Positions 2,576-25,597 of a stretch of DNA of 32,770 bases are shown here, piece after piece. This stretch comes from a virus (Duplodnaviria; Caudoviricetes), in the IMG/VR virus record IMGVR_UViG_3300037518_000650, positions 1-32,770 of that record. The stretch is one strand, 5' to 3'. The translations under genes were made by a program, and so were the position numbers. The notes beneath the pieces are model-generated. The model worked only from the letters and a program-made list of their open reading frames with translations. It had not been told where the DNA came from and made no database searches. The stretch's first letter is position 1. Every line of letters starts with the position of its first letter.

Positions 2576-2830
2576 AGATTAACTCAGTCGCACTATGTTA
2601 GTGATAGCCGCCCTCAGGCGCGGTGTGCTTCCGTTACACCAGGGCGGTGGTTTGCCCCGCATCTGTGGCTGCGGGACATCTCGCGTGCGGTCGGGTTGCG
2701 CTCGGCCAATTTGGTTTCCTGCCACAGCAGGCTTACGGCGAGCGGATACGAGCTTGACTCGCCGCGCCACACCTTCCATTGCCCGACCTGTTAGGTATTT
2801 CCTGCCGAGGCGCGCACACCCCGGCGATGG
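2576..2830 (-). ncRNA. candidate structured intergenic RNA
   Basis: Stems GGTCGGG/CCCGACC, CGGCGAG/CTCGCCG, CCTGC/GCAGG, CCCGCA/TGCGGG, CCGCCCT/AGGGCGG enclosing GGTGT/ACACC. Confidence 0.4.
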
Positions 2831-2831
2831 A

Positions 2832-3055: not shown

Positions 3056-4432
3056 TTAAAATCCTCCAACTTCAAAAACGCCCCTCGATACGTTCGAGAG
3101 GACCGATTCCACTTCCGTCTGCCCGCTCTTGACGGCGACTGGATTACCTGCCGTGTCGTACACGACGATCTGCGGCAGCGGCTGGACCAGGAACGGGACT
3201 GCTGACACGTCGAGCGTCAGCACCCGCGGATGCACTTTCTTGGCTTCGCGCACCCACGCTTCGATGCGCGGCCAGCCGCCCGCATCCGTCGCGTCCCCGA
3301 CGACGACGTAGTGCGAGATCGCCGTTGACCGCTGGATAGGAAAGGCGTCGCGCATCCCCTGCACCTCGGCAACCAGGCTGAGGACCGACGTCTCCAGTTT
3401 ATCGAGCCGAGCCGCAAGCGCCTGGTCGGTCTGTTGCGGCCCGCATTGGCACGGCTTGATGGCGGCGATCTGTGCGGACAACTCCGCCCGCAATCGCTCG
3501 ATCTCGCTGACCGCCGGCTTCGGCGGCTCCGGTCGCTTGGGCGCGGCCGGCGGCGGATCGTCACGCAGATAGTCCGGCAGCGTCGGGAACACCGGGTCCG
3601 CGCCGCCGCCAGGCTGCGGCGTACCCGGCAGCGGGCAACGCCCGTCAGGACAGTCTGGATTGACCGGACTGCGATCGAACGGCCCGTTGCGGCCTGGTGG
3701 GACTGGACGATTTTGGCGAGGGCCGAACACAAATCGCCCGGCCCCCCGAGCTGCGCGGCCGATCCCCTGCAGCAGGCCGACTTCCCGGAGATGCTCGACG
3801 TCGAAGCCGGTTTCGCTGCCCCACTCGCCCCGGAAGGCGGCGTGGATCTCGTCACTGGTCATGCCGCGTCCGCTGCTGCCGGCGTTCCAAGCGACCAGGC
3901 CGACGACCTGCCGGAAATCCTCGGTGAAGACTGGCGAGCCGGAACGCCCGTTCTCGGGCGGCGGGACGAACGACAGGAATCGACCATCAGACCTCGTGAC
4001 GTGTCCGGTCCAGGCCGTCGGCCAGTTTCCCTGCGGGCAGCCGATAGACGCGACCGGCGTGCCGGCGGGCAGTTGGCAGCCGCGCGGCGCGATCGGCGTG
4101 CAGCGCAGTCCCGGCACGAGGCCGGCGTCGAGATCGACGACCGCCAGGTCCCGCCCGCCCGCTTGGGCGCGCCAGACCGTCTTGGCCGGCAGCCACTGGC
4201 TCATATGCCCCCGCCGCCAAAACTGCACTTGGCACGCATCGCGATCGGCGACGTGCGCGTTGGTCAGGATTTTTACTCGCCCGTCCTTTTCCCCGAAGGC
4301 GATCCCGGTACCGTAGGAAGTCGACCAGCCAGTCGGCACCCGCACGCGGCAGGTGGCTTCCGTCGCTTGGCGGTAGTCGGCGTGCGCAATCGCCGGCAGG
4401 AACAAAAATATAATGATCGCATGCCGTATCAT
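3056..4432 (-). CDS. secreted trypsin-like (S1) serine protease with Pro-rich linker, coiled coil and C-terminal domain
   Basis: Signal peptide MIRHAIIIFLFLPAIAHA; catalytic motifs LTNAHV, RDLAVV, NGRSGSPVF; AGGAG SD before ATG 4432. Confidence 0.85.
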   Translation of the reverse strand: MIRHAIIIFLFLPAIAHADYRQATEATCRVRVPTGWSTSYGTGIAFGEKDGRVKILTNAHVADRDACQVQFWRRGHMSQWLPAKTVWRAQAGGRDLAVVDLDAGLVPGLRCTPIAPRGCQLPAGTPVASIGCPQGNWPTAWTGHVTRSDGRFLSFVPPPENGRSGSPVFTEDFRQVVGLVAWNAGSSGRGMTSDEIHAAFRGEWGSETGFDVEHLREVGLLQGIGRAARGAGRFVFGPRQNRPVPPGRNGPFDRSPVNPDCPDGRCPLPGTPQPGGGADPVFPTLPDYLRDDPPPAAPKRPEPPKPAVSEIERLRAELSAQIAAIKPCQCGPQQTDQALAARLDKLETSVLSLVAEVQGMRDAFPIQRSTAISHYVVVGDATDAGGWPRIEAWVREAKKVHPRVLTLDVSAVPFLVQPLPQIVVYDTAGNPVAVKSGQTEVESVLSNVSRGVFEVGGF

Positions 4433-4443
4433 CGCCGTCTCTC

Positions 4444-5058
4444 CTACGGTACGAGCGTCATCTTGTACGTGAGCAGGGCGCTGCGCATTAGGTCGCACGG
4501 CTCGACAAAGCTGCACCTCGGCACCAGGTCCCAGTAGGCGCGCTTGACCGAGCGATGCACCGCCTCGCTGCAGACGGGCGCCCGCCGCCAGGCGTCGGGA
4601 TTGGTGTCCGGGCGAAACCGATGCAACCACCGGCAGAACGGCACTCGGCAGACGACCGCGCCGGCGATCGAGAACCAGCCATATTGACCGGGCCTGATCT
4701 CGCGCTTCATCTCGTCGACGATCGTGGTCCTGTCGATCACCATGCCGTCCACCGATTCGACCAAGCTGTACACGTCGATTTGGCCGGGGTAGCGTTGCAC
4801 GTGGTGGCGAAGCGCGCTGATGCGTCCGCCGATCCATTCCCTGACCTCCATGCAGTACCAGTCGCCGTTCAATCTGCCGACCAGGGCCGCGTGCGAATAC
4901 GGGCCTCTGCCCAAGGTCGAGATCAGCCAGCCGACTCCCGCCAAGTGCCGCGGCCGGAGTTCCGCCAAGCGGCGCGGAAAGCAGCGGAAGAGCAACAGAT
5001 CCGCGTCGGCCAGCTCGGTGTGTGCGTCGGCCCATTGCACCTCGATCGCTGGTTCCAA
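4444..5058 (-). CDS. permuted papain-like NlpC/P60 (YiiX/YebB-type) amidase
   Basis: D.LLF...YSHAALV near the N-terminus and VCSEAV near the C-terminus give the permuted His-before-Cys order. Confidence 0.75.
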   Translation of the reverse strand: MEPAIEVQWADAHTELADADLLLFRCFPRRLAELRPRHLAGVGWLISTLGRGPYSHAALVGRLNGDWYCMEVREWIGGRISALRHHVQRYPGQIDVYSLVESVDGMVIDRTTIVDEMKREIRPGQYGWFSIAGAVVCRVPFCRWLHRFRPDTNPDAWRRAPVCSEAVHRSVKRAYWDLVPRCSFVEPCDLMRSALLTYKMTLVP

Positions 5059-5059
5059 C

Positions 5060-5128
5060 TCACCCGCCCGCCCACGCCGCGATTGCCAAGACTACCAGCG
5101 ACACGACCAGTGTGATCAATAGTTCCAT
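5060..5128 (-). CDS. 22-aa hydrophobic peptide (MELLITLVVSLVVLAIAAWAGG)
   Basis: Hand-translated; GGGGG SD-like sequence upstream; stop lies 1 nt before the amidase start. Confidence 0.45.
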   Translation of the reverse strand: MELLITLVVSLVVLAIAAWAGG

Positions 5129-5280
5129 CGCGCTGCCCCCGCTACGGCGCGCAGCGCCAGCCGTGTGGCGACGCGGCAAGTGTTTGGGTGGGGAAGGTAC
5201 GACAACGATGGACTCAACGGCATCCTGCCGCCCGCGGGTCCGTCGCCCGCAGTCTCCGGCCGAAATGGCCCTCTAGCAAG

Positions 5281-5309
5281 ATACTACGCAAAGGCCGCGC
5301 TTAGTGCAA
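5281..5309 (-). promoter_or_regulatory. sigma70-like promoter for the leftward operon
   Basis: TTGCAC-17 bp-TAGTAT on the minus strand. Confidence 0.55.
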
Positions 5310-5317
5310 TGATCTGT

Positions 5318-5346
5318 TTGCATTCGGTCGTGCGCATGGTGATACT
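5318..5346 (+). promoter_or_regulatory. sigma70-like promoter for the membrane protein gene
   Basis: TTGCAT-17 bp-GATACT. Confidence 0.5.
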
Positions 5347-5373
5347 CGAGTCCTTCACAGGGAGACAAATTCA

Positions 5374-5934
5374 ATGAGCAAATTCGGCGAGGGAGTCGGT
5401 CAAGGCGCCGGCTGTGTCATGGGCGGCGTCGGTTGTTTCGTGCTGATTCCAGTGGCGCTGCTCGCAGTGCTGGTATTCGTTGTGGTCGGCGTCCAGACGC
5501 TCGGCACCCCGCCCGAAGACGCAGGATCGCGCTCGCCGGAACCCGCTCCTGCGGTGCAACCGATCATCGTCCAACCGTATGAAGAGTCCTCTGAGTCACC
5601 GCCGCCAACTGCAGCGCCGCCGACGGCGGTGCCGGAGGAAAAGGCCCCTATCGACCAGCGGCAACCGGAGACAGTCGTCAACGAGCAGGCGCCAACTGCC
5701 CTTGATCCTCCTCCGGAGCCGGAGGTTAAGATTACGCTTGACCCTCAGCCTGCCGAGAAAGATTCGCTGCGTGACGTCGGCCGCGCCAAGTTGAAGTTGC
5801 AGCTCGCCGAGAAATACAAGGTCACTGACCCGAAAAGAGCCCGCCGATACTTGGCGGAAGCCCGCGCCCTCGCGCCCCGTGATGCAGTGACCAACGCTGA
5901 AGCCGACCGCATTGAGGGTGAAATCAACGAATGA
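5374..5934 (+). CDS. bitopic membrane protein, Pro-rich linker, helical C-terminus (possible superinfection exclusion or moron)
   Basis: N-terminal TM FVLIPVALLAVLVFVVVGV; AGGGAG SD; own promoter. Confidence 0.7.
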   Translation: MSKFGEGVGQGAGCVMGGVGCFVLIPVALLAVLVFVVVGVQTLGTPPEDAGSRSPEPAPAVQPIIVQPYEESSESPPPTAAPPTAVPEEKAPIDQRQPETVVNEQAPTALDPPPEPEVKITLDPQPAEKDSLRDVGRAKLKLQLAEKYKVTDPKRARRYLAEARALAPRDAVTNAEADRIEGEINE

Positions 5935-5972
5935 CAACTTTTCCCCAATCCGCACTTTTTGCCGAATTCGGT

Positions 5973-6011
5973 TACTGTACGGTTGCACAGTATCAGCGCG
6001 TTTGGTAAACT
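5973..6011 (+). promoter_or_regulatory. sigma70-like promoter with a palindromic operator over -35
   Basis: TTGCAC-17-TAAACT; TACTGT-ACGGTTGC-ACAGTA dyad (CTGT-N8-ACAG) at 5973-5992. Confidence 0.6.
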
Positions 6012-6016
6012 TTGTC

Positions 6017-6090
6017 GATCGGGAGAAACAAGCCGACCACGGACGCCCCCCCGGCACAGCTCACGGACCAGCGTGGACCGCTCTCTCGTC
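6017..6090 (+). ncRNA. candidate Csr/Rsm-type small RNA or CsrA-binding leader
   Basis: Three GGA-loop hairpins (CACGGACG, CACGGACC, GTGGACC) closed by a GGGAGA/TCTCTC stem, directly after the promoter. Confidence 0.45.
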
Positions 6091-6142
6091 GCGCGCAACT
6101 GCTGATTACCTCATGTCTGCCATCAAAGTACTCTGGTTGTGC

Positions 6143-6171
6143 TTGACATCTGCGCCTTGTTTGTCCATGAT
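6143..6171 (+). promoter_or_regulatory. sigma70-like promoter upstream of the wHTH and int genes
   Basis: TTGACA-17-CATGAT. Confidence 0.6.
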
Positions 6172-6230
6172 GTCGATGCGAAAAACAAACGGAGTCCTAT
6201 CCAGATGGCTTCCATGCGAGAATGGAAATC

Positions 6231-6317
6231 GAGAGTGCGGCCCCCGGACGTGTCAACGCTTATGCGTTGGGGCAGTTTCCGCTGCCTTCGCAACACAGCC
6301 GGGGGTCGCTCTCTTTT
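6231..6317 (+). ncRNA. cloverleaf-like structured leader or attenuator
   Basis: Outer stem GAGAGTGCGGCCCCCGG/CCGGGGGTCGCTCTC followed by TTTT; inner hairpins CAACGC/GCGTTG and GGCAG/CTGCC. Confidence 0.45.
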
Positions 6318-6463
6318 CGCAGGGAGGCTCGCCGCGATAACCAGCCTCGCACGCTGATTCCCGCAACATTTTGATGTCCGTTCGAAACCACTGCGCAACG
6401 AAAAGGCCGTTGGAACTGCCATTCCAACGGCCCAGATGGTTCGCACCTGATGAGTGATCACCA

Positions 6464-6937
6464 GTGGCCAAGATATCCGGTGCGCGCCCAGATGTCAATG
6501 CCTGGGCACTGCTCCCCGATGAGATTCTTGTCGAAGACATGAGCGGCTTGACGCGCGGATTCGTCCTGCGCAAGTTCACTGAGGACGAGAATCCCCGCTA
6601 CCGCCTTTATCCGTGCCCCGTCGAGGCGGCCGCGCCGGCGATGGGTTACCTAGGCATCATTCTCGACGAGCGCAACCACGCTGTCGAGTTTCGGGGTCTC
6701 TCGGTCGATTTCTCCGGCAGTCCGCGGCAATGGGAGATTTGCCGCTTGCTTGTGCGCGCCGGGCATGATGGAATCAGCCGTACCGAAATCGCCGACATCC
6801 TGGAAAGCGGACCATCTCTGTCGCCAGAGATCGGCTCACTCGCCGTGATGATCGGCCGCATCAAGGCAAGGCTTTTCGAGGTGCAGTTGACCATACCCCG
6901 AGCTAAACACGGTCGTTATCGGATAGAAGCGTTATGA
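6464..6937 (+). CDS. DNA-binding protein with C-terminal OmpR/PhoB-type winged helix
   Basis: SPRQWEICRLLV...ISRTEIADIL...SLAVMIGRIKARL...HGRYRI matches the Trans_reg_C pattern; no receiver domain. Confidence 0.7.
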   Translation: MAKISGARPDVNAWALLPDEILVEDMSGLTRGFVLRKFTEDENPRYRLYPCPVEAAAPAMGYLGIILDERNHAVEFRGLSVDFSGSPRQWEICRLLVRAGHDGISRTEIADILESGPSLSPEIGSLAVMIGRIKARLFEVQLTIPRAKHGRYRIEAL

Positions 6938-7998
6938 GCATTCGCGTGTGGGTGCAGCGGCGATCGAACAAGCGGTTTTTGTGTCTCGACTGGATTGATC
7001 CCCACACCGGCAAGCGCCACACCAAGTCCTCGGGTACCGCCGATCGCCGGCAAGCCGAACGAGCCGCCCAGCGACTGGAGGACGAACTCAACGCTGGTCG
7101 CTACGCCCCAGCCGGCCGAATGTTGTTTGAGACGTTCGTCGCGTTGTATCTCGAGCATCTCGCTGGCCGTTCGGCGACGCACCGAGCCAAGGCTCGGCGT
7201 GTCTTGCGCGAGTTCGCCGCTGTCGGCACGGTGACGACGACCGCACAAATCAACGAGCGATCCGTATCGCGCTTGCTCCAATCGTTGGCGGAAAAACGCC
7301 GACAACCGACGACCGTCAAGGGGTGCTGCTCGTATCTGCGGTCTGCCTTCCGCTGGGGTTGGGAACATGGTTATTTGCATCGCGTCCCGACGATTCATGC
7401 GCCGAAGCGATCCTCAGGCCATGCGCGGGTCAGAATCGTCAAGGCGTCGAGGATCACGCAGGAGCATTTCGAGCGCCTCGAAGCGAAATGCCCGGACGCT
7501 CGTTGGCGGCTCCTGATCGCCTTCGCATGGTACGCTGGTCTCCGCCGCTCGGAGTTGTTTCGTTTGGAGGGATCGCAGCTTGACCTGCAGCGCCACACCA
7601 TTGCGATCGGCAAGCCCAAGAGCGGCAACGTCGCCGAGACCGCCTTCATTCCGCCGCCGCTCGAAGCATTGATCGGCACGCTGTGGCCGCGTGCGCTTCC
7701 GAAGGATCGATTGTTTGGTCTGGTGACAAACGTCGAAGACTTGAGTCGGGTGTTCGGGTCGATCGCTAAAGCCGCGATGGTGCCGGGAAACTCGAAGGAT
7801 GGGTGGGCGACCCTGCAGGACTTGCGGCGCGCGTTCGGATCGCGCTGGTCCGCGCGCGTTCCCGCACAGGTCTTGCAGCGGATCATGCGGCATTCTAACA
7901 TCCAAGTAACTTTATCTTTTTACGCTGAGACCGACGATGCCGCGTTGCAAGCCATTCGCAACGTGGCGCCAAGCGTGGCGCGAGAATGCGGCGAATAG
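6934..7998 (+). CDS. int: tyrosine integrase
   Basis: N-terminal arm-binding and SAM-like regions; GLRRSE (R), KPKSG (K), QDLRR, RHSNIQVTLSFY (H, Y). Confidence 0.92.
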   Translation: MSIRVWVQRRSNKRFLCLDWIDPHTGKRHTKSSGTADRRQAERAAQRLEDELNAGRYAPAGRMLFETFVALYLEHLAGRSATHRAKARRVLREFAAVGTVTTTAQINERSVSRLLQSLAEKRRQPTTVKGCCSYLRSAFRWGWEHGYLHRVPTIHAPKRSSGHARVRIVKASRITQEHFERLEAKCPDARWRLLIAFAWYAGLRRSELFRLEGSQLDLQRHTIAIGKPKSGNVAETAFIPPPLEALIGTLWPRALPKDRLFGLVTNVEDLSRVFGSIAKAAMVPGNSKDGWATLQDLRRAFGSRWSARVPAQVLQRIMRHSNIQVTLSFYAETDDAALQAIRNVAPSVARECGE

Positions 7999-8196
7999 CC
8001 ATAAGTCCTTACGTAGCAACGATTGGCCGAGTGGTGGAACTGGCAGACACACGGGACTTAAAATAGAGTGTTGATGCTTGGTTGACTTCCGTCTGAATCC
8101 CATCTGCACGTGAATTCAAGCCGTAACAGGCGTTTTCTCCTATCCCTGATGTGCCCAGAAATTATCCCGTCAACGTGGCGCACGACGTGGCGCGAG
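7959..8196. mobile_element. attP: tRNA-homologous core flanked by arm-type direct repeats
   Basis: CAACGTGGCGC-N4-CGTGGCGCGAG at both 7959-7984 and 8171-8196, on either side of the tRNA fragment, between int and xis. Confidence 0.8.
8025..8064 (+). pseudogene. 5' half of tRNA-Leu(UAA), attP core
   Basis: GGCCGAG TG GTGGAACTGGCAGACAC A CGGGA CT-TAA-AA T; similarity to a tRNA ends just after the anticodon loop; no T arm or 3' acceptor strand. Confidence 0.85.
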
Positions 8197-9307: not shown

Positions 9308-9365
9308 TTTTTTACTGACCCGTAGTGCGACTTGCCGCGGGTGTGTGTTTTATTGCCAGGTTCGA
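9308..9365 (-). repeat. junction element copy E1 (right half, antisense to local genes)
   Basis: CGAACCTGGCA then CTACGGG-TCAGT-AAAAAA with 39-bp start-to-start spacing. Confidence 0.75.
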
Positions 9366-9393
9366 TTGCGCAATTGTGTGCGGATTTTGCGTG

Positions 9394-9702
9394 ATGAGTA
9401 CGACCCATACCGATCCGATCGGGGCCCAGTGGCAGCGTGCACCGAGGCCCGACGCTTGGCGATTGAAGCGCCTGCGCTACGTGCTGGTGACCGGCGAGCT
9501 GGTCAACGACGATACGCGACCATCGTTGTCGCTGGCCACGGCCGCACGCAAGGCGGTGGTCGGATGCACCACAATCAAACGCCTGGCGGACGAGTATCCC
9601 GAATTGATCGAGATCCGGCACGTGGAATACGAGGCGAAATCCGGCTCCTACGGCGCCAGCCACAAAGTGTTCGCCAAGCGGGTGTATTGGCGAGGAAAGT
9701 GA
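9394..9702 (+). CDS. hypothetical protein, possible HTH
   Basis: 102-aa ORF; SLATAARKAVVGCTTIKRL is HTH-like. Confidence 0.55.
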   Translation: MSTTHTDPIGAQWQRAPRPDAWRLKRLRYVLVTGELVNDDTRPSLSLATAARKAVVGCTTIKRLADEYPELIEIRHVEYEAKSGSYGASHKVFAKRVYWRGK

Positions 9703-9830: not shown

Positions 9831-10094
9831 ATGCCCGCAAGATTCGTCCCGGGCGCGCAGACGTGCCCGGACTGCAATCACCCGCTGGGGACCAGCCACT
9901 CGGAAGTCCTCTGCAAAGAGGCGGTCCGGGAGCGGGCGATCCGGCTGGTGATCGAAAACCGCCTACTGCGCGAAGTCGTCCGAGAACTCAAGCGACGACT
10001 GCGCGCACGGACCCCCGACCCAGACAAGGCCGCGGCACCGCGCAACGGCCATGATCGCAACGACTGCATGGAGGAACAAAAGTGCTGGTACTGA
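9831..10094 (+). CDS. small protein with CxxC and a coiled coil
   Basis: MPARFVPGAQTCPDCNH...; GAAGGA SD; overlaps the csrA start. Confidence 0.6.
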   Translation: MPARFVPGAQTCPDCNHPLGTSHSEVLCKEAVRERAIRLVIENRLLREVVRELKRRLRARTPDPDKAAAPRNGHDRNDCMEEQKCWY

Positions 10095-10330
10095 CCAGGA
10101 AAGAGCAGGAGCAAATCCTGATCGGCTCCGACATCGAGATCACCGTGGTCGAAATCAGGGGCGAGAAGGTCCGGATCGGGATCACCGCGCCCCTCGACGT
10201 GGCCGTCCATCGGCGCGAGGTTTTCGAACGCATCCTAAGTGAAAGGGCCAATCATGGCACGCAAACGAGCACAGGCGGAGAAGAAGAAGAAGAAAAAGAA
10301 ACTAAACTTCAGCCTGATCAAGCGGAATAA
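10082..10330 (+). CDS. csrA: carbon storage regulator CsrA/RsmA RNA-binding protein
   Basis: MLVLTRK..EQILIGSDIEITVVEIRGEKVRIGITAP.DVAVHRREVFERI is a canonical CsrA sequence. Confidence 0.93.
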   Translation: MLVLTRKEQEQILIGSDIEITVVEIRGEKVRIGITAPLDVAVHRREVFERILSERANHGTQTSTGGEEEEEKETKLQPDQAE

Positions 10331-10835
10331 GTCGGGGGAGGATCCGACCCCGTACCGGATCATGGATGAGCTGATCGAAAAACATCACCCGCACCTGGCC
10401 GAGGCGAAGATCGCGATCGCGTGGCGGTTCGGCTGGTCCCAGGACGCCGACGGTCTACTCAAGCTCGGCCAGGCCAAAAAAGTCAGCGAGCTCGATCGCG
10501 ATCTGCACGACTACGATTTCATCATCCTCCTCAACCACGAAGTCTGGAACAAGGCCAGCTTCAGCGAACGACAGATGAAGGCCCTCATCGATCATGAGTT
10601 ATGCCACTGCAGTGTCTCGATCGACACCAACGGCGAAAAAAAAATCGACGAACGCGGCCGCGTGATCTACCGCATCCGCAAGCACGACGTGGAAGAGTTC
10701 CGCGAAGTGGCCGCTCGGCACGGCTGCTGGCGCGACGACCTCCGGCAGCTCGCCGAGGCCGCGATCGAGAAGGACCACAATCCTCTGTTTGCCGGCGGCA
10801 AAGCGAAAGCCACCGCCAAGCCGGCGCACGCGTAA
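10254..10835 (+). CDS. putative phage metallopeptidase (HExxH)
   Basis: LIDHELCHC and RKHDVEEF.EV..RHG pattern. Confidence 0.8.
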   Translation: MARKRAQAEKKKKKKKLNFSLIKRNKSGEDPTPYRIMDELIEKHHPHLAEAKIAIAWRFGWSQDADGLLKLGQAKKVSELDRDLHDYDFIILLNHEVWNKASFSERQMKALIDHELCHCSVSIDTNGEKKIDERGRVIYRIRKHDVEEFREVAARHGCWRDDLRQLAEAAIEKDHNPLFAGGKAKATAKPAHA

Positions 10836-11550: not shown

Positions 11551-12378
11551 ATGAACGCACCCTACTTGGACGTGACGATCGACATCGAGACCATCGCGGG
11601 CCGGCCGGAGGAGGCCGAGGCCTGGGCCCGCCGCTACTGGTCGCCCAGCCGGAACTGGAAAGACACGACCGTCGGCACGCGCTGGCGCGAGGCGGTCGAA
11701 AAAAAGGAAGCGCGGCTGGCGCTGATCGACGACTCGCCGATCGTGGTCGTCTCGCTGGCGACCGACCGCGATTGCCGCGTGCTGCACACACTCGCCAGCG
11801 GCCCGACCGGCCAGGTCAACGGCGCCCAGGTCGAGGCGTTCGCCTCCGAGCGCGACATGCTGGCCGCGCTGCGCGATTACCTCGACGCCAACTGCGATCC
11901 CGAGACGGTGATCGTGTCGCACAACGGCAAGCGGTTCGATTGGCCGAGGCTGCGGCTCGCCTACACCCGGGCCGGTCTGAGGATCCCGGTCGCCCTCATC
12001 GACCGCAACCAGCCGCGGTTCGACACCATGATTGAATTCTCTCGCTTCACCGTCGAAGATCGCCCGTTCATCTCGCTCGGCGACGTGTGCGACATCCTCA
12101 ACATCCCCCACCACAAGGACCTGCTCGACGGGGCCGACGTGGCCGAGCTGTATAGCCGGGGCCGCTACGGAGAGCTGGTCGCCTACGCGCTGGCCGACGT
12201 GCTGGTCGAGCGCGAGGTCTATCGCACGCTGGCCGGGATCCGCGACGATCGCGAGGTGTCGATCGCGATCGCGCCGACCGGGGCCGAGCTCGCCGACTTC
12301 GAGCCGCTCTTGGACGACGACGAACCACCGGCGCCGGCCTCCCAACCACCAGCGCCGACCAAGACGCCATTTTTTTGA
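11551..12378 (+). CDS. DEDD 3'-5' exonuclease (PolB/DnaQ-like)
   Basis: ExoI DIET, ExoII HNGKRFD, ExoIII YALADV. Confidence 0.82.
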   Translation: MNAPYLDVTIDIETIAGRPEEAEAWARRYWSPSRNWKDTTVGTRWREAVEKKEARLALIDDSPIVVVSLATDRDCRVLHTLASGPTGQVNGAQVEAFASERDMLAALRDYLDANCDPETVIVSHNGKRFDWPRLRLAYTRAGLRIPVALIDRNQPRFDTMIEFSRFTVEDRPFISLGDVCDILNIPHHKDLLDGADVAELYSRGRYGELVAYALADVLVEREVYRTLAGIRDDREVSIAIAPTGAELADFEPLLDDDEPPAPASQPPAPTKTPFF

Positions 12379-12494
12379 TGACGCGGAAGCACTTACCGAG
12401 GAAACCAACGCTTCCTGCCACGTTCGGCAGGCTACCGAACCTGGCAGAAAAACCAGCAACGACAGCAGAGCCAACTACGGGTGAGCAAAAAATG
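12368..12494 (+). repeat. junction element copy E2 (complete)
   Basis: CATTTTTTTGATGACGCGGAAG...CTGCCACGTTCGG-N7-CCGAACCTGGCAG...CTACGGGTGAGCAAAAAATG. Confidence 0.85.
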
Positions 12495-13800: not shown

Positions 13801-13932
13801 ATGCCCCAGATTACAGAGATTTCTGTTAGTGCCAGTCGTAAGTTCAATCACCCATTTGAGGATTATTCTAACCTCGAATCGCACGTCACTTTGCACGCGT
13901 CACTTACAGATAACGAGGACGTCGACGACTAG
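13801..13932 (+). pseudogene. short or truncated phage gene (MPQITEISVSASRKFNHPFEDYSNL...)
   Basis: Strong AAGGAG SD; TAG at the boundary of junction element E3. Confidence 0.45.
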
Positions 13933-13938
13933 CATTAA

Positions 13939-13997
13939 CGAGCCTGGCAACCACACGTTCACCGACAATACAGCGTCCTACGGGTAATCAAAAAATG
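13939..13997 (+). repeat. junction element copy E3 (right half)
   Basis: CGAGCCTGGCA, 39-bp spacing, CTACGGG-TAATC-AAAAAATG. Confidence 0.8.
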
Positions 13998-14864: not shown

Positions 14865-14891
14865 GCCACAGAGAGCACAGAGGACACGGAG
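14865..14891 (+). repeat. NNCACAGAG 9-bp repeat, copy 2 (one arm only)
   Basis: GCCACAGAG AGCACAGAG GACACGGAG. Confidence 0.7.
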
Positions 14892-19497: not shown

Positions 19498-19539
19498 ACG
19501 CTCCCATCTGTTCATATTTGCTGATGCGAGGGACGATCG

Positions 19540-19981: not shown

Positions 19982-20049
19982 GCCACAGAGATCACAGAGG
20001 ACACAGCGTGCTTGCCGCATCAACACGATTGCTCTTTGGCCTCTGTGGC
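19982..20049. repeat. NNCACAGAG 9-bp repeat hairpin, copy 3
   Basis: GCCACAGAG ATCACAGAG GACACAGCG ... CTCTTTGGC CTCTGTGGC. Confidence 0.75.
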
Positions 20050-20050
20050 C

Positions 20051-20127
20051 GGCTTCCGTATCGGCAAGCCCCCGAGCCTGGCGAAGGAACGTCCACCGAC
20101 GGGCCAGCGGGTCCTGGTCATTAAAAG
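20051..20127 (+). repeat. junction element copy E5 (partial, diverged)
   Basis: TCGG-N7-CCGAGCCTGGCG...AACGTCCACCGAC...GTCCTGG-TCATT-AAAAG. Confidence 0.65.
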
Positions 20128-20165
20128 TCATCTGTTCATATTTTAGGATCCTGGCGGAGGGGAAC

Positions 20166-20381
20166 ATGGCACAGCGGAAACGGACGCAGCCGCGGCTGCT
20201 GTCGGACGTCTTGCGGGCGGCGATTGTGGCGGACGAGCGGACGGTGTATCGGCTGAGCGTCGATGCAGGGGTCTCGCAGCCTCAGATCGGCCGCTTCGTG
20301 CGCGGCGAGCGGACCCTCACCCTCACCGCCGCCGAAAAGCTCTGGCACGCCCTCCGCCTACCGCTGCCGCCGGAGCAGTAA
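20166..20381 (+). CDS. XRE-family HTH transcriptional regulator
   Basis: TVYRLSVDAGVSQPQIGRFVRGERTLTLTAAEKL; GGAGG SD. Confidence 0.85.
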   Translation: MAQRKRTQPRLLSDVLRAAIVADERTVYRLSVDAGVSQPQIGRFVRGERTLTLTAAEKLWHALRLPLPPEQ

Positions 20382-21143: not shown

Positions 21144-21749
21144 CTAGCTCACATTCGAGCACTGCGTGGCGAGGAGGTACCAAGTGCCGTCGACCCGCAT
21201 CGCCCACACCTCGCTGCCCGACGCAACGGATTCGCCCAGCGCCAGCAGACGATCGTGCACGACGATGGTCGTATCCTCACCGTTGATCGCGACTTCGTCT
21301 GCAGGGGCGTCGTTGGCCATATTGCGAATCTGTGCGTCCACGAAACCGCCCGCAGTGAGAGTCCCTTGCAAGACGCAGCCGACGATCGTGGGACCGGCGG
21401 AGAATGCGACCAAGAGGCCGCCCAACCGAAGACACAAGAGTGGCGTGTCGACCGGATTCTGGCCGACGAAACCAAGGTCATAGACCGTCACCTCGGTCTC
21501 CTTGTCGGAGACGGTCAGCGTCTCCTCACCGACCAGCGGCTGATCTCTCTCGAGCGCGTACACGGTCGCCTTCGCCGACGCCGGCGCCAGAAAGTTCCCG
21601 TGCGCCAGCTCCTCGGTCAAGACGCAGATCAGTGCCGGCGAATTCACGCGCATCCGCTTCGGCCGGCGGCGGGTGACGTCAGGCGTGCCCTCCACCGTCC
21701 GCACCGCCGCTACAATCCGCCGCGCCCCCTCCTCCTCAAACGTATACAT
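21144..21749 (-). CDS. putative minor tail protein
   Basis: Beta-rich 201-aa ORF in the tail operon. Confidence 0.65.
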   Translation of the reverse strand: MYTFEEEGARRIVAAVRTVEGTPDVTRRRPKRMRVNSPALICVLTEELAHGNFLAPASAKATVYALERDQPLVGEETLTVSDKETEVTVYDLGFVGQNPVDTPLLCLRLGGLLVAFSAGPTIVGCVLQGTLTAGGFVDAQIRNMANDAPADEVAINGEDTTIVVHDRLLALGESVASGSEVWAMRVDGTWYLLATQCSNVS

Positions 21750-21860
21750 TGCGTAGTCGGTTCTACCCTTGTCGGACGTTCTGCTGCCAGGTTCGGCACT
21801 GTGTCCGAATGTAGCAGGAAGCGCCGGTTTCCTCGGCTAGCGATTCCGCGTGATCAAAAA
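21747..21860 (-). repeat. junction element copy E6
   Basis: TTTTTGATCACGCGGAA...CCGAGGAAACC..CGCTTCCTGCTACATTCGG-N8-CCGAACCTGGCAG, 39-bp spacing, CTACGCAATG. Confidence 0.85.
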
Positions 21861-22226
21861 TCAGTCTTCGAGCAAGAGGACCTTGACTTTGACGGGCGCG
21901 GTGTTGGCTTGCCACCGGAGCGTGATGCCGGGTTCGAGGCGGAGACAGGCGAACTCGCCGGCCTCCAGCCGACCGAACGCCTTCATCGTCGTGTCCTTGG
22001 GTCCGTAGGTGACATAGTTCGTCGCGTCCAGGTTCTGCAGGAATAGCCAGCCGAGCGTCGTAATGTCGCCGATGCCGAGATCCTCTTCCGAGGTGCCGAC
22101 CGTCACGACCGGCGCGTGGGCGCCGACGGTGTTCTGCGTGATCGACGCCTGCGTCGGCGCGAACGTCTCCTTGTGGGCGCCGTTGGTCAGCGCCGCTTGC
22201 AGCGTGATCTTCAATTCGTTCGCCAT
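21861..22226 (-). CDS. putative minor tail / virion protein
   Basis: MANELKITLQAAL...LQNLDATNYV; GGAG SD. Confidence 0.7.
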   Translation of the reverse strand: MANELKITLQAALTNGAHKETFAPTQASITQNTVGAHAPVVTVGTSEEDLGIGDITTLGWLFLQNLDATNYVTYGPKDTTMKAFGRLEAGEFACLRLEPGITLRWQANTAPVKVKVLLLED

Positions 22227-23164: not shown

Positions 23165-24670
23165 TCAGAATCTGACGATGGTCGTTGCGCCGATCGCCTG
23201 GTCGCGCAGGACGTTAAAGATCTCCCTGGTGTTCCTGGCGGTCTGCCGCTGGTGTTGCTCCATGCGGCTGGCCTGGCTGCCGGCGAAGCGCTGCCGAGCG
23301 GAGAACTCGGCGGCCGTGCCCTTGATGTTGGCCGCCCCGGCGGTGACGGGCGAGAGCTGTGTGCCCCGCGCCTGGGCTGCCGCCTCGGACGCGACCCGCG
23401 CGGAGAACTGCTCGACCCCCAGCTTGTTGGCGACCGCCAGGGCCGCGGCGACGATGCCGCCGCCAAAGCCGCCGAAGCCGGCCAGGGTCCCGGGCCCACT
23501 GCGGACGTTCCGCGCCGCGGCCGCGTCGGCCGAGGCCTGCGCCCGGGCGGCCGACTCCGCTTGGAACTGGCGGAACTGGCCGACGAAACGCGTGCCGGCG
23601 CCCGCTTGGGTGCCGACGGCTTGCGTGAACTCGCCCCGGAAGCGGGCGGCGTTGGCGCTGGCTCGACTGGCGATCTTGGCCATCGTGTCGCCGAAGGTCG
23701 TTTCGACGCCCGGCAGCAGGTTGATGAGCTCTTGCAGTGCCAAGCCGAGCAAAGCGACGGCGCCTGCGGCCCCGGCGATCGCCGTGCTGATGACGGCCCG
23801 CAAACCCTTGAACGCAGTGCCGAGGGCATCGACCACGTTGCCGGCGATTTCTATTCCCGTCACCAGCCATTCCATACCTTCGGAGGCAAGCGACGCCCCG
23901 CCGCCAAAACTCGTAAAAAACTCCGTCGCTTTGTTCGACGCGAACTCAATGGCGGGTGCGATCTGAATGGCGATCTGGCCGGCGATCCCCTTGACGGCCT
24001 GGCCGATCTTGAAGAAGGCGTCGTTCGCCTGCTCGATCTTAGCGGCGTCGACCCGGTTGACAGCGACGCCGAGTTGGGCCGCTTCCTCGGCGGCGGCGCG
24101 CAATCCGGCCGAACCGCCCGCCAGCGTGTTGACCAAACCGACGCCCTCCGAGTCGAAGAGGGCGAACGCGAGACGGACGCGATCGGACTGATTCGACACC
24201 TGCTGCATGGCGTCGGCAATGTCGCCGAGCGCCGCTTCCGGCGCCTTGCCCGCCAAGCTGCTCGCCGAGAGGCCGAGTTCCTGCAGCGCCTTGACGGCCG
24301 GTCCCGATCCCTGCGCCGCGTCCGAGAGGCGGCGGGTCATGCGCTGTAGCGCGGTGTCCATCGTTTGAGCGCCGACGCCGGACAATTCGGCCGCGTGGCG
24401 CAGACCGGCCAGAGCCTCCGTCGCAATGCCCAGCTTGTCGCTCGTTTTGGCCAACGAATCGATGGCGTCGAACTGGCTCTTGATCAGTGCCCCGAATCCA
24501 GCCGCGCCGGCCAGGCCGGCGATCGCGCCGGTGAACGCAACGACTTTCGCCTTGGCGCTGGTGACGGCGCCGGCGATGCCGCCCAAGCCCTTCTGCACCG
24601 CGCCGACAGAGCGTGCGAAGCCCGCGGTGTTCATCCGCAGACCGATGTTCAGGGTCGCCAGCGTCGCCAT
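23165..24670 (-). CDS. tape measure protein (501 aa)
   Basis: MATLATLNIGL start, Ala/Gly-rich helices, IDSLAKTSDKLG...L.HAAELSGV; follows the tail assembly chaperones. Confidence 0.88.
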   Translation of the reverse strand: MATLATLNIGLRMNTAGFARSVGAVQKGLGGIAGAVTSAKAKVVAFTGAIAGLAGAAGFGALIKSQFDAIDSLAKTSDKLGIATEALAGLRHAAELSGVGAQTMDTALQRMTRRLSDAAQGSGPAVKALQELGLSASSLAGKAPEAALGDIADAMQQVSNQSDRVRLAFALFDSEGVGLVNTLAGGSAGLRAAAEEAAQLGVAVNRVDAAKIEQANDAFFKIGQAVKGIAGQIAIQIAPAIEFASNKATEFFTSFGGGASLASEGMEWLVTGIEIAGNVVDALGTAFKGLRAVISTAIAGAAGAVALLGLALQELINLLPGVETTFGDTMAKIASRASANAARFRGEFTQAVGTQAGAGTRFVGQFRQFQAESAARAQASADAAAARNVRSGPGTLAGFGGFGGGIVAAALAVANKLGVEQFSARVASEAAAQARGTQLSPVTAGAANIKGTAAEFSARQRFAGSQASRMEQHQRQTARNTREIFNVLRDQAIGATTIVRF

Positions 24671-24757
24671 TTTTTAATGCCCCGTAGGAAGCTGTACCGT
24701 CGTTGACCGCTGTGCTGCCAGGTCCGCGAGAACCACCGACCGCAGCAGGAAGCGCCG
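24668..24757 (-). repeat. junction element copy E7
   Basis: CGGCGCTTCCTGCTGC...CGGACCTGGCAGCA, 39-bp spacing, CTACGGG-GCATT-AAAAAATG. Confidence 0.82.
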
Positions 24758-25100: not shown

Positions 25101-25461
25101 TTTTTTCCGCGCTCTTGGCATCTTCTTTGCGCATCCGGTTGACCCGCTGAGCCACCTCGTAAATCCGGTCCAACAGCGGTCCCAACCCCGGGGCCTGGTC
25201 GATCGCCAGCGCCTCGCGCACGCCGAAGAGCTGCGTGCCCGATTCATCGACCGCACACAGCGCGACCAATCTTGCCCGGCAGCCGACGGCACGGTCCGGG
25301 TCAAAGTTCCCCTCTGCATCGAGCATCGCCGATTGGTACTGGTCGAGCTCCCGGCCGCTGAGAAGGCGGACGTAGACGAAGCCGTCCAGCTCGGGCAACT
25401 CCACGCGCTCCGGCCCAGGGGGCTTCGATTGCAGAATCTCGCTCGCTGATAAACACTTCAT
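25042..25461 (-). CDS. tail assembly chaperone (G part)
   Basis: VELPELDGFVYVRLLSG pattern; A AAA AAC slippery site at 25105-25099. Confidence 0.82.
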   Translation of the reverse strand: MKCLSASEILQSKPPGPERVELPELDGFVYVRLLSGRELDQYQSAMLDAEGNFDPDRAVGCRARLVALCAVDESGTQLFGVREALAIDQAPGLGPLLDRIYEVAQRVNRMRKEDAKSAEKNSGHGRNGETGSDSPGTSA

Positions 25462-25597
25462 TTTTTATGGTGACCCGTAGTAGGCTCTGCTCTTAGTGCA
25501 CGGTTTTCCGCCAGGTTCGGGAGCTCCACCGAACGGGGCAGCAAGCGCTGTGTCTGTTGCAGCGCTTCCGTGTCATCAAACATTCGCGGCATCAAAA
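25459..25597 (-). repeat. junction element copy E8 (left end duplicated)
   Basis: TTTTGATGCCGCG..TTTGATGACACGGAAGCG...GTTCGG-N8-CCGAACCTGGCG, 39-bp spacing, CTACGGG-TCACCAT-AAAAAATG. Confidence 0.85.

Follow-up and report, generated by a model that had tools for sequence, protein, structure and literature searches.

A family of 124-bp palindromic elements ending on start codons in a temperate siphophage genome, possibly derived from a miniature insertion element

The window that we analysed is the whole of IMG/VR record IMGVR_UViG_3300037518_000650 (32,770 nucleotides), and it belongs to an uncultured temperate siphophage. Its plus strand carries the integrase, CsrA and replication genes, and its minus strand those for head and tail. 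Near-invariant copies of the same phage are present in sediment and soil metagenomes, and a second record of it reaches the terminase through a 2.4-kb extension. The collections searched hold no close relative of this phage, and its closest relatives by protein identity stand at 44% for the tail chaperone, 44% for the integrase and 51%, over part of the protein, for the initiator. Sequence matches point to a planctomycete as the probable host: among 28 integrase homologs, one carries a planctomycete name (40% identity), and the att fragment matches a tRNA-Leu(TAA), with three mismatches, in 3 of 301 Planctomycetota genomes, an att search that covered Planctomycetota only and so leaves the assignment weak.

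The genome contains eight copies of a non-coding, palindromic element that measures about 124 bp when complete. A complete copy reads, in order, T-run, outer box, left hairpin, 13-bp inner box, spacer of 5-8 bp, mirrored inner box, 29-bp linker, outer box and A-run. All eight were located at the positions and on the strands given in a preliminary description of this DNA, and they are listed here with the features next to them.

9308..9364, minus strand: right half only (the 9365 copy), broken at the dyad centre and opposing the operon direction
12370..12492, plus strand: complete copy (the 12368 copy), with T-run left end, left hairpin, central 13-7-13 dyad at 12415-12447, outer box and A-run
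13801..13932, plus strand: 43-aa reading frame, its stop 6 bp before the 13939 half copy
13939..13995, plus strand: right half only (the 13939 copy), broken at the dyad centre and ending on the replication initiator start codon
14911..15031, plus strand: diverged complete copy (the 14911 copy) with a 5-bp spacer, ending on the start of gene 15031
20051..20127, plus strand: decayed copy (the 20051 copy), adjoining a CACAGAG-type palindrome and not anchored on a start
21749..21860, minus strand: copy with its right end truncated beyond the outer box (the 21860 copy)
24670..24757, minus strand: copy without left end (the 24757 copy), ending on the tape measure start codon
24765..24788, minus strand: 24-bp perfect palindrome, taking the place of the 24757 copy's left end
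25461..25583, minus strand: complete copy (the 25597 or TAC copy), its end on the start codon of the tail assembly chaperone gene
25584..25597, minus strand: extra 14-bp left end, between the upstream stop and the copy that begins at 25583

The eight copies are one real family of homologous elements. With nhmmer in a leave-one-out design, models built from seven copies recovered the eighth every time, scoring 18.6-83.7 bits (E 2.9e-25 to 3.8e-5), while ten shuffled windows gave at most 12.8 bits and the best non-element site at most 6.9 bits; the family thus stands clear of shuffled DNA, the comparison on which the preliminary description had staked it. Inner and outer box lie 39 bp apart in six copies and 38 bp apart in two, as described before, with the register of the 20051 copy, whose outer box is degenerate, set by its A-run. 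Across the six with 39-bp spacing, the boxes are much better conserved than the linkers, and the consensus is matched at 58 of 60 positions in the inner box, 30 of 30 in the outer core and 112 of 162 in the linker. The right inner box is retained in all eight copies with at most one change, and the left arms are decayed or absent in five. Conservation of the boxes in copies that are otherwise diverged indicates that something keeps them or has kept them. The divergence of the linkers, which had also been pointed out, is true of the right arms, but their linkers are still clearly homologous (mean 52% versus 29% when shuffled; 0 of 5000), and from this we conclude that the copies spread as whole units. 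The right linkers show no codon-phase bias, and an encoded peptide was rejected on that ground and on in-frame stops.

The central spacer is indeed variable (7, 8, 8, 8, 5 and 7 bp in six copies), and the spacers have a central AGC in common. That the left half mirrors the right holds for both boxes, which the arms have in common, but for nothing beyond them (middle parts, z at most 2.0), and the outer inverted repeat is imperfect: of 17 possible pairs, one of the two scored copies forms 12 and the other 11. The right end had been written as CTACGGG, five bases and an A-run, a formula that needs an exception for the TAC copy, where seven bases precede the A-run and an extra left end is present.

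In six of the eight copies, the last base of the element is the A of a start codon. Only five copies had been counted as ending in ATG, and the sixth is the right-truncated 21860 copy, which lies directly behind the stop of gene 21861-22226 and ends on the start of gene 21144-21749. For the initiator and the tail chaperone, the element-led start codon agrees with the starts of homologs. If any harmless AT had served as a site, 0.27 start-anchored copies would be expected instead of six of eight (p 0.006), an expectation calculated from 149 intergenic AT sites and 54 listed starts, although not every intergenic site is harmless. Seven of the eight copies follow the direction of transcription (two-sided p 0.07), in agreement with the earlier count.

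Complete copies had been said to begin at or to supply the upstream stop codon; the left end of the 12368 copy does provide the exonuclease stop (12376-12378), just as its A-run supplies the A of the AAA-ATPase start codon, but the 14911 copy starts 55 bp past the stop. For the 24757 copy the upstream stop lies within the perfect palindrome that replaces the left end, the longest perfect palindrome in the window. Reconstructed from this one genome by removing the element in silico, the junctions would read ATGA (12368), TAATG (25597), TGATG (21860) and TAATG (24757), and tight stop/start junctions like these are common elsewhere in the phage; the 14911 site with its element removed gives no ordinary stop/start junction. 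At the TAC junction, the extra left end matches that of the 14911 copy at 14/14 positions and that of its neighbour at 10/12, so that a 14911-identical left end stands beside a different full copy. Most simply, this junction represents two arrivals at one start codon, with 25584..25597 likely a remnant of the earlier one; local duplication followed by conversion is an alternative.

The two half copies share one breakpoint, at a base next to the spacer. Behind the half copy at 9308..9364 there is no start codon, and a candidate left-arm remnant at 9365-9397 was rejected (p 0.28); the predicted structure of the 9394 protein (pLDDT 44) was too poor for use. Before the other half copy, the 43-aa frame has one homolog (E 1.2e-4, 40% over residues 3-42), which is the N-terminus of a frame of about 225 aa in 1 of 301 Planctomycetota genomes. 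By this match the 43-aa frame is likely the front of a longer gene, and, given the length of the single homolog, one deletion likely took the end of that gene and the left arm of the 13939 copy together. The genes behind the copies are mixed (ATPase, initiator, chaperone, tape measure), the capsid and portal genes are without copies, and the neighbourhood of the copies shows an ordinary gene order. The 20051 copy lies 39 bp upstream of an HTH gene that has its own Shine-Dalgarno sequence.

Other repeats were seen in the same window. A second family, of CACAGAG type, occurs at 975-1027, 14865-14887 and 19982-20049, just behind stop codons; it is palindromic in two of these places, and two of its three copies adjoin the 124-bp element. 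A 15-bp direct repeat at 19505-19519 and 20129-20143, just upstream of gene 19540 and of the HTH gene at 20166, is a candidate part of an operator or promoter.

The element-led starts have no clear Shine-Dalgarno sequence, as had been remarked, with a mean pairing of -4.5 kcal/mol at six such starts versus -6.6 at 37 others (p 0.028), calculated with a generic anti-Shine-Dalgarno sequence and with four further starts left out because the coordinate used for them missed the codon. Such weak pairing would suit a structured RNA acting in cis, by which the upstream stop and the downstream start are uncoupled and translation begins without a Shine-Dalgarno sequence, as would sense-strand folds that in some copies exceed shuffles in stability (z -3.4, -2.8, -2.0) and the left hairpin of the 14911 copy, which persists though its letters differ. 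However, Rfam has no match for the element, covariation is at the level of shuffles (0.051 versus 0.047, with 174 of 500 shuffles as high, in an alignment that misplaces the 14911 copy), and mismatches in the dyad divide 6 to 4 between G-T and A-C with no G-U excess. Moreover, the two half copies fold at chance (z 0.1-0.3), yet one of them leads a gene, and the antisense strand folds equally well or better in two of four copies. We consider this RNA, which was one of the four options in the preliminary description, highly unlikely to explain the family. Other candidates at the RNA level were rejected, including a frameshift at the T-run, which precedes a stop in the 12368 copy only, a tRNA or tRNA-derived element (no tRNA was found, and a likeness to a D-arm has the wrong spacing), and a CsrA site, with GGA in the left loop of only two of four copies. 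Elsewhere in the window, a 256-bp gap in the late operon (2576-2831, minus strand) contains GGCAGGAAA twice, as well as a stretch resembling a tRNA D-arm (2625-2640), and has no Rfam match; given the phage's csrA gene (10082-10330), it is a candidate CsrA-binding small RNA.

We give about an even chance to the reading that the family is a MITE-like mobile element that inserted at A^TG and has been partly domesticated, with the right arm now likely providing the downstream gene with its translation start. In its favour we count the homology of whole right arms, the better conservation of the boxes, the placement on start codons, the tight junctions obtained on removal, the two different ends at the TAC junction, and the mixed set of genes behind the copies together with the absence of copies at capsid and portal genes. 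From the observed family, its placement and the conservation of its boxes, we infer a helper, an insertion chemistry and a present function as follows. A helper protein or enzyme would read the two boxes of each arm, which we propose as the reason that the boxes outlast the linkers. Insertion would take place between the A and the T of ATG, or with duplication of AT, and the ATG would survive because the element ends in A, while an overlapping upstream gene would still stop because the element opens with a T-run and TGA. Only copies sparing a gene would survive. The right arm would have taken over from the gene's original ribosome site or coupling and, with these replaced, would be retained, while left arms would decay through palindrome-driven deletions.

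Of the options put forward earlier, a MITE at stop/start junctions fits best, but not in every detail, as the proposed CAT...ATG ends are present in one of the four copies with a left end and flanking AT in three of the four. There, AT at both flanks is indistinguishable from the T-run and A-run; the 14911 copy is without it, and the copies have no target duplication longer than AT. We compared the element with MITE criteria of terminal inverted repeats of at least 10-15 bp and a target duplication of 2-10 bp; at about 124 bp, with eight copies and no codon-phase bias, it is short, multi-copy and non-coding. Its size lies within published MITE ranges, as its imperfect inverted ends may, and it resembles bacterial and viral MITEs such as ERIC (about 127 bp), Correia and RUP in size, lack of coding, inverted ends, hairpin potential and intergenic multi-copy spread, as these are described in the available text of PMC3184786 and PMC11602168. 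Unlike them, it has two boxes in each arm, a centrally placed inner dyad, flanking AT instead of TA and anchoring on start codons, and its eight diverged copies lie in one phage with no cognate IS or host copies found. MITEs are reported from 0.01% of viral genomes. Mobile elements specialised on start and stop codons have a precedent in IIB1 group II introns of the Avi.groEL lineage, as far as PMC12584367 was available; these are large self-splicing retroelements, whereas our element is a 124-bp DNA palindrome for which no reverse transcriptase was found.

The MITE-like reading also agrees with the presence of other palindromic repeats at junctions, both in this phage and in other Planctomycetota-type prophage regions. 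Unrelated palindromic repeats were found in this phage, in at least 3 of 19 other regions scanned and in 1 of 4 further records, and we conclude that invasion of such phages by short palindromes is ordinary. Planctomycetota-type prophage regions (L152 at 4281-8071; L154/L183; L233-L234) have REP-like or other palindromic families of 3-12 members. Orientation with transcription and the retained right arm count against this reading, since a regulatory site would explain them as well. A search of the window and its 2.4-kb extension turned up no transposase with matching ends; a PHROGs label of 'transposase' at 10254-10835 looks wrong, with Pfam identifying a phage metallopeptidase with an HExxH-like motif. 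No empty allele was seen among the near-invariant copies of the phage across sequencing runs, and the closest relatives are at most 44-51% identical in protein. MITEs are usually abundant in the host, and no copy was present in the host-type sequences that we examined. We also rejected the idea that the spacers are target duplications left by gene cassettes, since the common central AGC fits common descent and the gene order is ordinary.

The element was not found outside this phage in IMG/VR, GTDB, JGI metagenomes, INPHARED, PLSDB or the prophage regions that we fetched. Pattern scans of IMG/VR gave one locus, which was the same phage, then 112 loci, of which only the same phage scored and all others reached 14.3 bits or less, and 26 loci, where those outside this phage reached 17.9 bits or less. 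Seven of the last 26 are one single-copy intergenic stretch, without the dyad, of an unrelated phage group and were rejected. This conserved, GC-rich stretch of about 75 bp (L200, L203, L205, L210, L211, L214 and L217, at about 300-520) lies between two co-directional genes, once per record, and is a candidate origin or RNA. The GTDB scan gave four loci, each within a reading frame, of which three presumably encode FtsK near Walker A, and the JGI metagenome scan gave four, namely the same phage once and three loci at 10.7 bits or less; the IMG/VR, GTDB and JGI scans used exact patterns and would miss families with drifted boxes. BLAST against INPHARED and PLSDB gave nothing matching more than 27% of the query, and a sequence model run on 150 Planctomycetota genomes gave a single match of 18-22 bits in 14 of them, none with the two-box layout. 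In four whole metagenome assemblies searched at 80% likeness, we found only the phage's own copy, and since sibling copies were missed as well, this excludes near-identical host copies only. Rfam, the sequence databases and the literature searched have no match, which bears out the statement that this is not a named element. That literature, mostly without subscription papers and with the supplementary MITE lists of PMC11602168 outside the comparison, neither describes the element nor contains a start-codon-targeting short DNA element, and the family apparently has gone undescribed so far; the published comparison set also took in the available part of PMC3733652.

A serious rival, though one that we consider unlikely, is that each copy is a protein-bound control module made up of a start region and an operator or promoter and carried from operon to operon by recombination, with a phage regulator on the central dyad tuning low-abundance genes. 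The preliminary description had proposed such an operator/promoter array, and it is favoured by the conservation and regular 38-39-bp spacing of the boxes, the right inner box in every copy above all, together with the orientation of seven copies along transcription and the HTH gene behind the 20051 copy. Against it, no sigma-70 match was found inside the copies except one of 9/12 from the 14911 A-run, which is within chance. The extended start-associated sequences (ESAS) of Cluster K mycobacteriophages are likewise imperfect inverted repeats with a 4-13-bp spacer before starts (PMC3203893, in the text available), and, with 13-bp arms and a 5-8-bp spacer about 60 bp before the start, our element resembles the SAS/ESAS pair as an imperfect, variably spaced and gene-oriented repeat upstream of a start box. 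It differs from them in that SAS, as the accessible portions of PMC3203893 and PMC12699233 describe it, has another sequence, is ribosome-site-like and serves non-structural genes only, whereas the element pairs weakly as a Shine-Dalgarno site, carries a mirrored left end and also precedes tail genes; by inspection its start-proximal box differs from the 13-bp SAS consensus, and three copies lie in the tail operon. The 17-bp repeat of Cluster O phages has identical GTTCGG/CCGAAC arms, a hexamer likeness that may be chance, but it has a fixed 3-bp spacer, more than 30 invariant copies and, in the part of PMC4351075 available, no flanking arms, unlike a 5-8-bp spacer set within a 124-bp unit. 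Neisseria REP2 and Borrelia IR-A/IR-B, repeats of 120-180 bp, likewise terminate in the ATG of the gene downstream, but REP2, in the accessible text of PMC3184786, carries a promoter and ribosome site and no terminal inverted repeats, whereas the element has inverted ends and no recognised promoter. Further against a control module, the variable spacer is a poor fit to a single dimer, a mirrored left end at the upstream stop would be of no regulatory use, the genes behind the copies form no obvious regulon and the 9365 copy faces no gene.

The window also contains the following recombination functions.

6934..7998, plus strand: tyrosine integrase; no other recombinase was found in the window
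7960..8193, plus strand: likely attP, with the 5' half of tRNA-Leu(TAA) at 8026-8064

Direct repeats with a 12-bp period at 7960, 7972, 8172 and 8184 lie on both sides of the tRNA half and are candidate arm-type sites, with a core that resembles the inner box of the element. Related integrases have similar adjacent repeat pairs beside them, one with the same 5'-half layout, which is why we take 7960..8193 as the likely attP with arm-type sites. An attP usually carries the 3' half of a tRNA. Here the 5' half is co-directional with the integrase, a layout that locus L224 has with another tRNA, and integration would place the restored tRNA under a phage promoter. The integrase has Gln at the His of H-x-x-R, which is His in 11 of 11 aligned homologs, and from this alignment its activity may be altered. 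A 76.5-kb provirus record (G407; L219 and L220) has a related integrase near each of its ends, with 39% and 42% identity to the window's integrase.

If the inner boxes were arm-type sites of this integrase, the element would be a mini-att substrate or an integrase-bound operator, subject to deletion, inversion or movement, a reading that we hold to be doubtful, and decidedly so. A matrix made from the element boxes only ranks the four att repeats 19, 20, 108 and 165 of 63,690 positions, and an outer-box matrix puts the attP core side at rank 37 of 63,674; chance would give this at about 0.0005 raw, or 0.005-0.02 after a rough correction for possible comparisons, but the common motif is only 9 bp and was spotted post hoc. 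The half copies, broken at one base by the spacer and in one case adjoining a likely truncated gene, would fit recombination, and in the available part of PMC10516654 there is a precedent in MrpR, an integrase-fold protein on the dispersed phage repeat SPBRE. On the other hand, the arms are direct repeats at att and inverted in the element, the spacer length varies, and none of three phage records with related integrases has inverted pairs of its own arm motif or a match to the element. Likewise, none of the 15 joints among those listed (47 more exist) links two copies, contigs span five copies unchanged, although assembled contigs drop rare forms, and the gene order around the copies is ordinary. 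Combining this with insertion, a miniature element read by the tyrosine integrase through arm-type boxes and inserted at start codons, with the integrase as both transposon helper and regulator of replication and tail genes, is in our estimate improbable.

The attC-like or loxP-like sites also proposed earlier were not borne out. A loxP-like or lambda-type crossover spacer is 6-8 bp and fixed for each system, and the spacers here, at 5-8 bp, are not fixed. No RYYYAAC or GTTRRRY core of attC was found on either strand of the five longer copies, and no integron-integrase family reached the cut-off in the window, where only sub-threshold Xer-type matches occurred. Integron attC sites resemble the element in lying between one gene's stop and the following gene and in being imperfect palindromes, with lengths of 57-141 bp (PMC3053210, as available), but the element has neither the cores nor the integrase and flanks core phage genes. 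A GTAG tag of the kind seen in REP sequences (GTAG/GTGG) is present on the bottom strand of six of the eight copies, but REP was rejected because the best stem in tagged copies has 3-6 pairs, whereas the accessible text of PMC6006769 calls for 7-20 bp starting 0-2 nt past the tag.

If the MITE-like reading is true, this would be a DNA element that lives harmlessly in a dense phage genome through insertion at start codons, providing every gene concerned with a new start region. In viruses, miniature transposons are reportedly rare, and the eight natural variants with their two conserved boxes could be used to identify the protein that binds them. Should this be the phage integrase, site-specific recombination would be linked to transposition and gene control.
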